This document shows, piece by piece, positions 5,287-57,449 of a DNA stretch of 64,000 bases (position 1 is the stretch's first letter; every line of letters starts with the position of its first letter). Location: NCBI GenBank assembly GCA_951406725.2, contig OX597818.1, positions 54,250,001-54,314,000 of the forward strand, in the 5' to 3' direction. The position numbers were made by a program, and so were the translations under genes. The notes under the pieces were generated by a model that did not search any database, was not told the DNA's origin, and worked only from the letters and a program-made list of their open reading frames with translations. This DNA is from Octopus vulgaris (taxonomy: Eukaryota).

Positions 5287-5948
5287 ATGGACTACACAGA
5301 TGCACAACGTGTTGAAGGCATATTTTTTAAAGAGAGAAACCCCGATTCACAACCTGAAGATGTTGAAATGGTGTCTGTTGAAGGAAGTAGCGAATCTGTA
5401 AATACCAGATATAACATGGATCGTAACAAAGAAAACCTGGCTTTGATAATCAACAATGAAAGTTTCGACGAATCGACTGGTTTCTCTAACCGACAAGGAT
5501 CCGACAGAGATGCATCAGCAATTAAACACACATTGGAGTCGTTGCATTTTAAGGTAATTAACCGCAAGAATTTATCAGTGAGAGATATGACGCAAAAGTT
5601 TACGGATATATCCACGATGGACCATACGAAGCATAACTGCTTCGTTTGTGAAAGCAATAACAAGATTTATGGCACTGATGGAGAAGTAAATCTTACGAGT
5701 TAGTGCAGATGTTGCTTCCTGATAGATGCCCAGGTTTAATAGGTAAGCCAAAACTATTCTTCGTACAAGCCTGTCGGGGAAGGAAAGAGGACAGCGGTGC
5801 ACCTATGCACGATGCCGGCGATTTTAGAGTGAAATATCAAAATGTCACATCTCACAAAGTACCACTTGGGGCCGACATGCTTCTGGCTTATTCCACTGTC
5901 CCTGGATTTTACTCCTATAGACGTTCTACAACTGGATCTTGGTTCATT
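5287..5948 (+). pseudogene. Caspase-3/7-like copy 1, pseudogene
   Basis: ACCATGG start, MDYTDAQRVEG, QACRG present. An 18-bp deletion at ~5650 removes VILTHG (catalytic His), there is a 1-bp deletion at ~5696 (cttacgag vs cttaacgag), and homology stops after GSWFI at 5948. Confidence 0.93.
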
Positions 5949-6039
5949 TGGTAAACGTTATATATATATATATATATATATATATATATATATATATATA
6001 TATATATATATATATATATATATATATACATATATATAT

Positions 6040-6590
6040 CCAACGAAGCTACACGAAGAAGATAGCCTCTGTGCAGCATATAAGCTACTGGGAAAGACTC
6101 AAGAGATTAAAACTCTATTCCTTGGAGCATAGGCGAGAAAGATATGCCATAATATATATCTGGAAGATCCTGGAAGGACTTGTCCCAAACTTTGGCATCG
6201 AGAGTCACACAAATGCCAGAACCGGGCGCCACTGCGTGGTACCAAGGACTCCAAATTTGTCATCAAGATGTAGGACAAGATACTGTGATAGCCTGGGCTT
6301 CAGAGGCCCACAGCTCTTCAATATCCTCCCGAAGAACCTAAGGGACCTGCATGGTGTAGATGCGGATGTCTTTAAAGTAGGACTGGATCTCCTCCTGTCA
6401 GGTGTCCCGGATAAACCAACTTCACGGCAGGAGGTGCAGATGAGGGCAGCTGCATCGAACTCTCTCATGCACCAAATGGCAGTTGCTAAAAAGCATTCGT
6501 GAGGTAAAATCATGTAGCAAACCAAATGGCGGTGCCCCAGCATGGCCACAGCTCATGAGCTGAAACTGGGAAAATCAAAATCAAAATCAT
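6040..6590 (+). mobile_element. CR1/L2-type LINE 3' fragment
   Basis: YWERLKRLKLYSLEHRRERYAIIYIWKILEGLVPN is typical of the C-terminus of CR1-group ORF2; 3' tail ends in (AAAATC)n; related end at ~35665-35825 (-). Confidence 0.8.
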
Positions 6591-6611
6591 ATATATGTAT
6601 ATATATATATA

Positions 6612-6960
6612 CTAGCAGAATTGCCCGGCGTTGCTCGGGGCTGAATTGCTTGAAAGTACTGTTAATGATTGCACTGAATTATGATGATTATTCAGGCAAA
6701 TATTGATATAAGTTTACGGTGGGAGATAAGGACTTAACGATCAAATGTGTGCCATTGCATTGTTTTGGAGGAACCAAATTTCTGATGAGCATTATAGGGG
6801 CACCAACTTTAAGTTTGAGAAAGTGTGGTGGTCGTCCGGGGTGCTCAAAGGAATTGAGTACCTCTATTGGATAGTTGATGAGATCAGAAGGCGTCTTAAC
6901 AATGGTACAAATGGAATCGATGGCAATATCACCATTTTCATCCCCTGGTATTTTGCCTTC
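6612..6960 (-). mobile_element. Helitron 3' end with Pif1-like helicase fragment
   Basis: YPIEVLNSFEHPGRPPHFLKLKVGAPIMLIRNLVPPKQCNGTHLIVK matches the Helitron RepHel helicase motif; terminal hairpin CCCGAGCAACGCCGGG followed by CTAG|T on the minus strand. Confidence 0.85.
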
Positions 6961-7368
6961 GCCAAGTGCAAGGAGGGCGATGCTGGTAATGATCACACTC
7001 GAATAGTGCCTCCTACATGCCACCGGCATGGAGGCCAGATAGCCGCTCTGGCAACAATCACTCTCGGATGGTGCTCTTAATACCCTACTAGCACGGGGGC
7101 TTGAGTGCCAGTAATGCGACGCTGGTAACGATCATGCTTGAATGGTGCATTTTAAGTGTCACTGGCAAGGAAGCCAGTTAGCCGCTCTGTCAATGATCAC
7201 ACTCGTATGGTGCTCTTTGCAACCCGCTAGCATGGACGCCAGTCATCGAATTTGATTTTGATTTTTGATTTTTGAGGAAATCACTACTATTCCCTTCAAA
7301 CTTTGCTTTTGTGACCATTACATTTCAGATAGATTCAGCGCTGAGTTGCTGGATCAGAAATATTGTTA

Positions 7369-54095: not shown

Positions 54096-54291
54096 TATAC
54101 ATATATTTGTGTGTGTGTGTATATGTATATGTATATATATATATATATATATATATATATATATATAGGTGTACTTTGTTAATTACAAACATGCATGCTG
54201 ACAATTCTACATGTCAGTGTGCATAATTAGTGTATACACACGCACACGTGCATGTGTATGTGAATGTAATTGTGTAAATTAAATACATGTA

Positions 54292-55075
54292 TCATCACCG
54301 TCGTCGTTTAACGTCCGCTTTCCATGCTAGCATGGGTTGGACGATTTGACTGAGGTCTGGCGAACCAGATGGCTGCACCAGGCTCCAATCTTGATCTGGC
54401 AGAGTTTCTATAGCTGGATGTCCTTCCTAACGCCAACCACTCCAAGAGTGTTGTGGGTGCTTTTACGTGCCACCGGCACGAGGGCCAGTCAGGCAGTACT
54501 GGCAATGTCCACACCCAAATGGTGCTTTTTATGTGCCACCTGCACAGGAGCCAGTCCAGCAGCACTGACAACGACCTCGCTCGAATATTTTTTCACGTGC
54601 CACCAGCACAACTGCCTGTAAGGCGACGCAGGTAATGATCACGCTCGAATGGTGCTTTTTACATGCCATCGGCACGAAGGCCAGCTTGTTGCTATGGCAA
54701 TGATCACGCTCGTATGGTACTCTTAGCGCTCCACTAGTACAGATGCCAGTCATTGAATTTGATTTCGATTTCACTTACCTCAACAAATCTTCGCAGGCAG
54801 AGTTTAGTGTCCAATGAAGGAAAGCCATGCATGAGTGGACTGGTTACACCCCTGGTATAGGCCACAAGGTTATAGTCTCACTTGCGCTTGCCGGGTTTTC
54901 TCAAACACAGCATATTTCCAGAGGTCCCAGTCACTAGTCATTGTCTTGGTGAGGCCCAGTGTTTGAAGGTCAGGTTTCACCACCTCATCCCAAGTCTTCT
55001 TGAGTCTACATCTTCCACGGGTTCCCTCAACTGCTAGGGTGTGGCACTTTTTCACACAGTTATCCACATTCATTC
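54292..55075 (-). mobile_element. RTE-clade LINE 3' end with long 3' UTR
   Basis: VEGTRGRCRLKKTWDEVVKPDLQTLGL...W C-terminus, then ggttggcgttaggaaggac...(GAT) tail. Confidence 0.75.
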
Positions 55076-56451
55076 AGACAGACAGACACACATTCTCAGT
55101 TTTATACATATACATATATATATATATATATATATATATATTTAAAATATAAGTTAGAGTTAAAAACCACTATTATGCAACTCAAACATTGATAGACATA
55201 AACCAATACATAAATAATATATATATATATATATATATATATATATATATATATATATATATATATATATATATATATATATATATATATATATATATAT
55301 ATAATATATATATATATATATATATATATATATATATATATATATATATATATATATATATATATAATTCAAGTAATATGTCTATATATATAAAATATTA
55401 CATCAACTTATATATATATATATGATACTTAAAGAAGATATATATATATATATATAGTTCAGTATGTGGCAAAGTAATATATATATATATATATATATAT
55501 ATATATATATATATATATATATATATATATATATATATATATATATATATATATAAAGAGTTAATCCAAACAAGAAAACACAAAAAACACAGCAACGCGA
55601 GGACGTGGAACAAATAAAGTATTATTGGACGCTCAGGAAAGAAGGAAAGGAGGGTTTAACGTTTCGAGCGGAGCTCTTCATCGGAAATGAAGGAGAAGGA
55701 AAGATCCCGAGAAGGGAAGACAGAGGAAAAAAAAATTGCTGGCGGTGCTCACGAGGTCACACGTTGAAAGCATATAAAATACATACATATATATATATAT
55801 ATATATTCATATAATATATATATATTATTCCCTCCTTAGCGAAGGCGGCGGTAGTAAAGAGACAAGGTGTTGATGGTTCCAATGTATTTTATTATAAGTC
55901 CACTAGATATCAATTAAACACGAAAATAATAGTTTTGCCATTAATATTAAGAAATAAAACCAATTTATTAATGTTATCACTTTTACAATATTTTAATTAT
56001 TTCAACGAAAATGTTAGTGAAGAGCAAAAAAATTAGGAAAGGAATTTTTCTTAGTAAATCTTATAACGCAGAATGTAAGTCTCTGATCCGGGTGTGTGAT
56101 ACGCTGTACTACTTTTTTCTGTTGTACTTGAACTTTGTATATTCATGTTTAGAACCAGTCTTCATTGCTCAACAGGGGGATGGTAACAAGTTCAGAAAGG
56201 ACCATATACATTACTCACTGTCATACAGTTTTGAAAGAAATTTAAAGTATATAAAAATTTTTATAATGAAACGAAATAACATGTTCTCATGACAGAATAG
56301 AAAATGGAGTAGAAATTTCAAGGACAGACACACACAGACGTAGTCAAATCAAACAGTCAAGCAATAAAAATATCAATAACAAACATGCGGACGAGCACAG
56401 GAAATGTATTTGATGATCGTTTAAAAAAAAAAAAAAAAAAAGAGGGCTTTT

Positions 56452-56479
56452 GACGTTTCAAGCGTAACACTTTCGTCAG
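56452..56479 (-). ncRNA. Minimal hammerhead-ribozyme-like motif (Penelope type)
   Basis: Minus strand CUGACGA-AAGUG-UUA-CGCUU-GAAAC-GUC; stems I and III are minimal. Confidence 0.45.
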
Positions 56480-56564
56480 AAAGTAAAACGGAAAAATTCA
56501 GAGAAGGAAAAAGATCACCAACAGCATGTAGGAGAGAGGGGAAAACGATTGAAAATTGAAAATT

Positions 56565-57449
56565 TTACTTGTAAAAGTGTAGTTCTTTTGTTAACATGCT
56601 CACTATGGAAGGAACTTGTTTCATTTTATTCATAGACGAATGGCTGGAATTAGACTCATATTCATAAGCAACATTGCGATTTACCAAAAGCAATAATCGT
56701 TGCAGTTCAAGTTGGTCTCCGTCTTTTTCCAAAATGTGAGCCAACGATTGAATAAACCACGATCCATTAGTGGAATTTCTCCAGGCGTAAAATCCAGGGA
56801 CAGTGGAATAAGCTAGAAGAACGTCTGCCCAAAGTGGTACTTTGTGAGATGTGACATTTTGATATTTCCCTCTTACAAAAGCATCGGCATCGTGCATAAC
56901 TGCACCTCTGTCCAGTTTCGTTCCCCGACAAGCTTGTATGAAGAATAGTTTTGGCTTACCTATTAAACCTGGGCATCTATCAGGAAGCAACATCTGCACT
57001 AACTCGTTAAGATTTACTTTTCTATCAGTGCCATAAACCTGGTTATCGTCTTCGCCGTGAGTTAATAAAACACAAACGAAGCAGTTATGCTTCGTATGGT
57101 CCATCGTGGATATATCCGTGAAGATTTGCGTCATCGCTTTCACTGATAAATTCTTGCGGTCGATCACCTTAAAATGCAATGACTCCAAAGCCTTTTTAAT
57201 TGCTGATGCATCTCTGTCGGATCCTTGTCGTCCAGACATTTCAGTCGATTTGTCAAACTTTTCGTTATTTATTATTAAAGCCAGATTCTTTTTTTCGCGA
57301 TCCATGTCATATCTGGCATTTACAGATTCGCTACATTCCTCAACATTTACAGATTCGCTACATTCCATTTCAACATCTTGAGGTCCTGGATCGGGGTTTC
57401 TCTCTGTAAACCATATACCATCAATAGGTTTTGCATCTGTGTAATCCAT
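56565..57449 (-). CDS. Caspase-3/7-like effector caspase copy 5 (294 aa, intronless, canonical WRN class, most divergent N-terminus)
   Basis: Intact ORF: MDYTDAKPI, LTHG, FIQACRGTKLD, YAWRNSTNGSWF, VSMLTKELHF. Confidence 0.95.
   Translation of the reverse strand: MDYTDAKPIDGIWFTERNPDPGPQDVEMECSESVNVEECSESVNARYDMDREKKNLALIINNEKFDKSTEMSGRQGSDRDASAIKKALESLHFKVIDRKNLSVKAMTQIFTDISTMDHTKHNCFVCVLLTHGEDDNQVYGTDRKVNLNELVQMLLPDRCPGLIGKPKLFFIQACRGTKLDRGAVMHDADAFVRGKYQNVTSHKVPLWADVLLAYSTVPGFYAWRNSTNGSWFIQSLAHILEKDGDQLELQRLLLLVNRNVAYEYESNSSHSSMNKMKQVPSIVSMLTKELHFYK

Follow-up and report, generated by a model that had tools for sequence, protein, structure and literature searches.

Tandem caspase genes are known to exchange sequence in primates, where the CASP1/CARD16/CARD17/CASP4/CASP5 locus is described as a patchwork that arose as genes were repeatedly converted, duplicated, and lost, in blocks to which promoters and pseudogenes also belong (PMC11630849). 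In cephalopods, the tandem reflectin and tyrosinase clusters of argonauts show concerted evolution or conversion together with partial recombination (PMC9635652, a paper whose main text does not contain the word caspase), and caspase-3/7-like effector genes have multiplied in molluscs (PMC11543851, PMC9389742). As in these systems, a 64,000-nucleotide stretch of the Octopus vulgaris genome (NCBI GenBank assembly GCA_951406725.2, contig OX597818.1, positions 54,250,001 to 54,314,000 of the forward strand; hereafter the window, with positions counted from its first letter) carries a cluster of multiplied, mosaic genes, in this case five caspase-3-like paralogs whose adjacent blocks group the copies incompatibly. 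We consider it very probable that this cluster has been shaped by the duplication and loss of copies and by recurrent interlocus gene conversion, the tracts being about 25-200 nt long, with some chimeras also arising via unequal crossover.

The five loci, here called copies 1 to 5 (c1 to c5), were located in the window by searching with the protein encoded at 47599-46733. Four of them (c2 to c5) lie on the minus strand, while c1 lies on the plus strand and is thus inverted relative to the others, and the coding regions of all five are without introns. Open frames of 283, 288, and 294 residues are present in c2 (15248..16099), c4 (46733..47599), and c5 (56565..57449), respectively, each with a caspase domain (PF00656) at a Pfam E-value of 1e-60 or better that begins at residue 50-55; no other Pfam family was found in these three proteins, in keeping with a short prodomain without a CARD or DED. 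Copy 3 (29090..29939) is frameshifted, as its A run contains eight nucleotides (29793-29800) versus ten in c2. This 2-nt loss may be genuine or a homopolymer error, and the frame is open in P0015, the nearest O. sinensis protein to c3. Copy 1 (5287..5948) is a pseudogene, with an 18-nt deletion near 5648 that takes out the catalytic His-Gly, a 1-nt deletion near 5695, and an early end at 5948, where homology stops and the last ~60 codons are absent. The catalytic His-Gly, the QACRG motif, and the S1 residues Arg, Gln, and Arg are kept in c2 to c5. A structural model of c2 is predicted to retain the caspase fold (predicted local distance difference test score, pLDDT, 78.7; top Foldseek matches caspase-7 and -3, E 2e-30), although it carries no information on activity. 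The closest database proteins are caspase-3-like proteins of O. vulgaris (96% to c4), O. sinensis, and O. bimaculoides, followed at a greater distance by those of Argonauta (68%) and Sepia (49%), and the best relatives with solved structures are caspase-3 and -7. The cluster members are effector caspases (caspase-3/7-like, peptidase C14) of a family already annotated in three Octopus species, with 7-9 related public entries per species.

The coding regions are 85-93% alike between copies, and the 653 columns common to all five contain 58 two-state informative sites, 32 of which cannot be held by one tree. We write the resulting splits so that 14:235 denotes copies 1 and 4 sharing one state and copies 2, 3, and 5 the other. 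While the 5' flanks group as {1,2}, {3,4}, and {5}, the coding sequence (CDS) contains 12 sites of split 14:235 in 63 nt (CDS nt 118-180), six of them silent by a strict count, followed by seven sites of split 35:124 at nt 241-274 with one 12:345 site among them, split 23:145 at nt 317-340, and split 34:125 at nt 399-439. The inter-subunit linker groups {2,5} against {1,3}, and from nt 496 onward split 123:45 prevails save at four linker sites (528, 535, 536, and 556). A first-pass annotation of this DNA had proposed seven incompatible groupings, all of which are present in both the DNA and the protein alignments, and its view of the copies as a patchwork without a single tree stands. Adjacent informative sites carry the same split at a frequency of 0.60 versus 0.18 when permuted (0 of 20000 permutations equal, p=5e-5), and this clustering holds with one site per codon. 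Simulations on the best single tree, run 1000 times under each of six rate-variation settings, never reached the densest off-tree block observed, that of 12 same-split sites (14:235) in 70 nt; the maximum in 6000 runs was 7. Identical runs are over-long in seven of ten pairs after Bonferroni correction, and the approximately unbiased (AU) test rejects the whole-gene tree in two of eight blocks, at nt 112-180 (p=6e-5) and 235-291 (p=0.0015). The block borders were set after inspection of the data; a border-free run test on the p10 end gave p=1e-4. Silent sites carry the split of the nearest replacement site in 9 of 18 cases (p=0.006). GC-biased conversion left no trace, the GC content at third codon positions being 0.37-0.40 in all five copies.

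Identical tracts of 25 to 194 nt are shared between the copies, with partners that differ by tract. In c1, a 136-nt tract covering the 5' leader and the first 37 codons (5262..5397, plus strand) is identical to c4 (47624-47489), tracts of 46 nt (5602..5647) and 68 nt (5695..5762) are identical to c5 (57119-57074 and 57007-56940, respectively), and a 194-nt tract (5736..5929) is identical to c3 (29473-29280), from which it was presumably copied. In c2, the minus-strand segment 15880..16045 is identical to c3 (29885-29722) bar the 2-nt difference in the A run, again with c3 as the likely donor, and 25 nt of the inter-subunit linker (15554..15578) are identical to c5 (56913-56889). A minus-strand block in c3 (29668..29701) groups with c5 (57194-57161) against copies 1, 2, and 4. 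Partner changes are frequent in the N-terminal peptide, loop L1, the p20 helices, and the linker preceding the presumed activation Asp, in agreement with the earlier proposal of short-tract exchange between paralogs, which is borne out for the N-terminus, L1, the p20 body, and the linker. Over the last 94 codons (196-289), none of the 62 silent sites differs between c2 and c3, while the 3' flanks of these two copies are only 72% alike over ~175 nt. The 5' flank of c3 (29940..30260, minus strand) is related to that of c4 (47600-47942), with 44 mismatches in 306 aligned bases; c3 therefore combines a c4-like 5' flank with a c2-like 3' half and 3' flank. The motif GCGGAAGT, an ETS-like sequence and a candidate promoter element, has four matches in the whole window versus 0.55 expected, all upstream of c1 to c4 (4728..4735 on the plus strand; 16656-16663, 30235-30242, and 47917-47924 on the minus strand), and a 7-nt version lies upstream of c5 at about 57846-57852. 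A (G)CGGAAGT motif occurs 300-560 nt upstream of every copy, though the flanks form three mutually unalignable groups. Because c3 unites a c4-like 5' with a c2-like 3' flank and GCGGAAGT precedes c1 to c4, upstream control regions and coding ends have probably been reassorted between copies. The promoter shuffling proposed in the first-pass annotation is thus supported for the upstream regions, while the promoter itself is only putative.

The relationship between c1 and c2 illustrates how flanks and coding regions have parted ways. As the first-pass annotation had noticed, their flanks are near-identical and their coding differences many, at 10 of 883 versus 49 of 664 sites (p=1.6e-10), with 5 mismatches in the proximal flank, or 6 in a second alignment. 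At 28 of the 49 coding differences both alleles are present in c3 to c5, and at none is neither allele present. Codons 38-60 hold 8 silent differences in 13 silent sites, versus 0-1 in every other block. The contrast between flanks and coding regions may have arisen because the flank has one possible donor while the CDS has at least four, an explanation that needs no selection. The two copies sit on opposite arms of an inverted duplication. The arm containing c1 (2057..5948, plus strand) consists of a microsatellite, an interspersed repeat, a 28-bp minisatellite, unique flank, and the truncated CDS, while the parent arm containing c2 spans 15419..20290 on the minus strand. The 28-bp minisatellites lie just upstream of the two flanks (83 units at 2336-4686 and 118 units at 16725-19997) and differ in variant order, with no common order obvious by eye. 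At the c1 truncation junction (5946..5957, plus strand) a 12-mer is followed by (TA)n, with 3-nt microhomology at the join, and the sole other exact match to this 12-mer in the window lies at the far upstream edge of the c2 arm (20279..20290, minus strand). Only these two sites have (TA)n next, and the two bases that come next differ between them. The same edge of the c2 arm (20279-20325) contains a short internal inversion in a repeat, broken by a (TA)n(TG)n run. Judged from the sequence, c1 resembles a duplicate of the c2 region that was circularly permuted and placed into a (TA)n run, via a circle or template switching, although the permuted piece at the junction is very short (9-12 unique bases and the (TA)n run); if so, c1 was truncated at birth.

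Comparison with other Octopus assemblies, made on named proteins (P-numbers) rather than DNA, revealed counterparts that differ from c3 at 8 of 282 residues (P0015), from c4 at 11 of 288 (P0001, an O. vulgaris protein), from c2 at 13 of 283 (P0008), and from c5 at 19 of 289 (P0004). Thirteen of the 19 differences between c5 and P0004 fall in the first 30 residues, where c5 resembles the O. sinensis protein P0010, and only 2 lie past residue 68. The protein tree, which omits c1 along with five partial public proteins and in which 9 of 23 inner branches are open, was used for nearest pairs only. The four public counterparts alone display all three four-way splits, at 15, 7, and 3 of 25 sites, with clustering at p=0.0003, and species-wise public sets likewise show clustered incompatibility (p=0.012, 0.0005, 0.001, and 0.0095). 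As the conflict reappears in proteins whose Octopus assemblies are independent of this one, the mosaic is not an artefact of a single assembly. Paralogs outside the window are also patchy, with P0001 and P0010 sharing a block at residues 110-116 and the six differences between P0005 and P0007 all falling within residues 138-156.

The counterparts also suggest a polarity for some of the tracts. By hand count, 13 of the 17 residue differences between c1 and P0008 match c3, c4, or c5. Across the 194-nt tract shared by c1 and c3, the residues are those of P0015, the counterpart of c3, and not those of P0008, and c1 is therefore the probable recipient. At residues 47-68, c2 appears to have taken the c3 state, as 6 of the 13 differences between c2 and P0008 fall there and five are of c3 type. 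At the positions where c1 and c2 match P0015, c3 has kept that state too, on the basis of one counterpart per copy and of proteins only; for one change common to c1 and c4 the direction is ambiguous. The deletions of c1 are present in no other row and the longest tract appears to run from c3 to c1, which speaks against the suggestion in the first-pass annotation that the pseudogene served as a donor. That the dead copy gathers patches likewise disfavours a donor role and favours neutral conversion, since exchange that continues in a dead copy needs no selection.

Taken together, these results argue for a local effector caspase cluster in which copies are duplicated and lost and, in the germ line, recurrently overwrite parts of one another through interlocus gene conversion. 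The CDSs would stay alike while the flanks decay among repeats, such that only the leader and CDS would offer homology to several donors. Repair templated by a paralog would then replace 25-200 nt per event, dealing old alleles into new combinations, and c1 would be a truncated, inverted duplicate of the c2 region that still receives patches. The clustering of incompatible sites, the differing segment trees, and the short identical internal tracts with resident sequence on either side, silent sites included, are as gene conversion predicts, and for Drosophila duplicates a conversion rate ~100-fold that of mutation has been cited (PMC2588116). We infer conversion rather than double crossover. 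Several observations weigh against this interpretation. The AU test keeps the whole-gene tree in six of the eight hand-picked blocks, and the off-tree fraction alone, a poor statistic, is equalled in as few as 2 and as many as 135 runs per 1000 across the simulation settings. The silent-only signal is modest, as strictly synonymous sites alone (n=12) cluster weakly (p=0.065 and 0.107) and the 18 silent sites of a per-site definition give p=0.030; clustering at the protein level among the window copies alone is not significant (p=0.13 and 0.054). P0004 and P0007 are labelled isoforms X1 and X3 and are possibly gene-model chimeras, which would inflate the conflict in the public sets, and 3 of the 25 four-counterpart sites lie in the possibly chimeric N-terminus. 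Patches private to c1 and c2 rest on one assembly, tract direction on one counterpart per copy, and the structures of c3, with its c4-like 5' flank and c2-like 3' end, and of c5 are equally explicable by single crossovers.

The last point bears on repeated unequal crossing-over, which would make chimeras and shift copy number, with the patches as the residue of many single crossovers. As the sole account we judge this improbable. It fits c3, which unites a c4-like 5' flank with a c2-like 3' half and flank, and c5, which unites a P0010-like N-terminus with a P0004-like body, as well as the single orientation of c2 to c5 and the 7-9 related public entries per species. However, internal tracts of 25-166 nt revert to resident sequence at both ends, and the inverted c1 shares tracts with c3, c4, and c5 while keeping the flank of c2. 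Unequal crossing-over is therefore likely a contributor and not the main cause.

We find it very hard to credit that the mosaic arose from assembly or polishing, through mixing of reads from similar copies or through c1 being an uncollapsed second haplotype of c2. The c1 and c2 flanks are only ~1% apart, c3 has its 2-nt homopolymer loss where the public counterpart is open, and the identical tracts are of short-read length in a repeat-rich region, all of which such an error could produce. Against this, proteins from other assemblies repeat the ways in which blocks are combined in c3, c4, and c5, and the conflict exists among public proteins alone; the 25-nt tract, flanked on each side by resident alleles, is below read length, and c1 has its own junction and unrelated neighbours.

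In addition to being mosaic, the copies fall into two active-site classes. With residues numbered as in mammalian caspase-3, c4 and c5 carry Trp206, Arg207, and Asn208 and a long L4 loop, while c1 to c3 carry Tyr, Arg, and Arg at 206-208 (SYRR) and L4 is five residues shorter in c2 and c3. The canonical site, SWR followed by Asn208 with full-length L4, is thus found in c4 (SWRN at 46951-46943, long L4 at 46822-46797) and, with Ser to Ala, in c5, and in none of c1 to c3 (in c2, SYRR at 15451-15443 and short L4 at 15322-15312). All 51 of the named non-cephalopod references, a set picked by likeness to c4 and thus biased towards W, have W at the Trp206 position, while among octopus rows with a residue this position is Tyr in 9 of 25 and the Asn208 position is Arg in 7 of 25. 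A short L4 occurs together with Tyr-Arg-Arg in all five of c2, c3, P0008, P0015, and P0011 of O. bimaculoides, and three other Tyr rows have a long L4. Because all five short-L4 rows carry Tyr-Arg-Arg, the divergent class is common to several octopus species. A homologue search with the c2 p10, which sees word-sharing relatives only, returned no new sequence, and among its 23 hits the SYRR/short-L4 combination occurred in O. sinensis (2) and O. bimaculoides (1) and in no others. Further active-site variants are found in P0013, P0019, and P0022.

The two classes remain separate at the p10 end. After CDS nt 585, 27 of 27 informative sites of c2 to c5 separate {2,3} from {4,5}, versus 16 of 31 before it. 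The divergence of p10 does not exceed that of some p20 blocks, and p10 stands out solely by lacking cross-class tracts. The p10 end is exchanged inside each class (c1/c2/c3 and c4/c5) and not between canonical and divergent copies. This separation may be maintained by selection, as in opsin exon 5, or by a homology barrier such as the 15-nt indel. The shuffling of specificity loops that had been proposed thus applies to L1, while the main loops L3 and L4 are the least shuffled.

These observations also bear on whether conversion is retained by selection because it creates novel specificities in immunity or cell death, pseudogenes being the donors, a scenario to which we assign only a very small probability. 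Its appeal lies in the variation, in octopus, of positions conserved in other animals (the Trp206 and Asn208 equivalents), in loop variation nominally 1.36 times that of the core versus 1.09 in the references, and in whole-gene ratios of replacement to silent differences per site (pN/pS) of 0.42-0.96, which are high for a protease. However, pN/pS is below 1 in ten of ten pairs, a level that is relaxed and not above 1, the dead copy shows no less of a patchwork than the live copies, L3 and L4 are unshuffled between classes, the donor role of c1 is unsupported, and the choice of references by c4 likeness accentuates their W. With none of the 27 late sites crossing between classes at L3/L4, the diversifying immune-type regime envisaged in the first-pass annotation finds no support at this locus. 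Lastly, a single tree on which the same sites mutated repeatedly or came under convergent selection, which could yield the off-tree share alone under strong rate variation (up to 135 of 1000 simulations), is largely refuted by the clustering of sites, the one-tree simulations, and the AU tests, and we give it practically no credence.

Any functional difference between the two classes is predicted from their residues. In vertebrates, Asn208 bonds the P4 Asp (PMC7846959) and a single p10 position decides gasdermin E cleavage (PMC10942788, which also describes the SWR motif), such that the divergent class is altered at residues on which P4 binding and the cleavage of gasdermin E depend there. We tentatively propose, as a possibility that we hold to be rather doubtful, that Tyr206, Arg208, and short L4 define a second octopus specificity class whose p10 is held by selection while promoters, prodomains, L1, and activation linkers are rapidly reshuffled between copies by conversion. 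If this is true, the cluster would generate caspases combinatorially, with two substrate ranges and many regulatory inputs, and the born-dead copy would serve as its neutral control. The divergent class offers a cheap test of specificity drift in effector caspases and is a lead worth experiment.

The window as a whole is AT-rich and densely populated by (TA)n runs, transposon remnants, and interspersed repeats. Between c3 and c4, an open 608-codon frame (38736-40562, plus strand) with matches to hAT dimerisation and Spin-doc zinc-finger domains apparently encodes an intact hAT-type transposase. Remnants of long interspersed nuclear elements include endonuclease and reverse transcriptase pieces at 60694-63231 (plus strand) and a separate endonuclease fragment at 24980-25798 (minus strand), and a Pif1 helicase 2B fragment at 6691-7131 (minus strand) is probably a Helitron remnant. 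A degenerate TTAGGG-type array at 22620-22874 constitutes an interstitial telomere-like repeat, and an interspersed repeat unit of 157-184 bp forms tandem runs at 8155-8706, 20780-22168, 27650-28245, and 41469-42310. No tRNA genes were found in the window.

For octopus caspases, the practical consequence is that whole-gene trees, orthology calls, primers, and peptide assignments for 'caspase-3' are unreliable in this family; octopus caspase-3 has been put forward as a welfare biomarker (PMC11431876). We found no report of mosaicism or a divergent class in octopus caspases in a search whose scope excluded subscription journals, figures, and supplements, and the text passages covered from PMC11543851 contain no mention of conversion, mosaicism, or an SYRR/short-L4 class. 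With respect to the origin of c1, duplication through extrachromosomal circular DNA likewise places a duplicate elsewhere with its segments circularly permuted (PMC7188851), although in c1, with so short a permuted piece, template switching fits equally well. The separation of p10 resembles exon 5 of the human red and green opsins, where the decisive segment is kept distinct while the rest of the gene is exchanged, but the opsin residues have known functions and coincide with a divergence peak (PMC3924837), whereas the octopus p10 has no such peak and its function is predicted only. In argonauts the outcome is mainly pairwise homogenisation (PMC9635652), whereas the octopus cluster deals old alleles among five or more copies. 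The primate locus comprises CARD-bearing inflammatory caspases with introns and demonstrated positive selection (PMC11630849). The octopus cluster, by contrast, consists of short-prodomain effector caspases with uninterrupted CDSs, more exchange partners, and pN/pS below 1. In chicken immunoglobulin and trypanosome variant surface glycoprotein genes, silent donors feed an expressed gene one-way. Unlike in those systems, the polarised octopus tracts appear to run from c3 or c5-type sequence to c1 and c2, one c1/c4 change aside. The octopus mosaic is a well-supported new instance of a known process, most likely textbook gene conversion.

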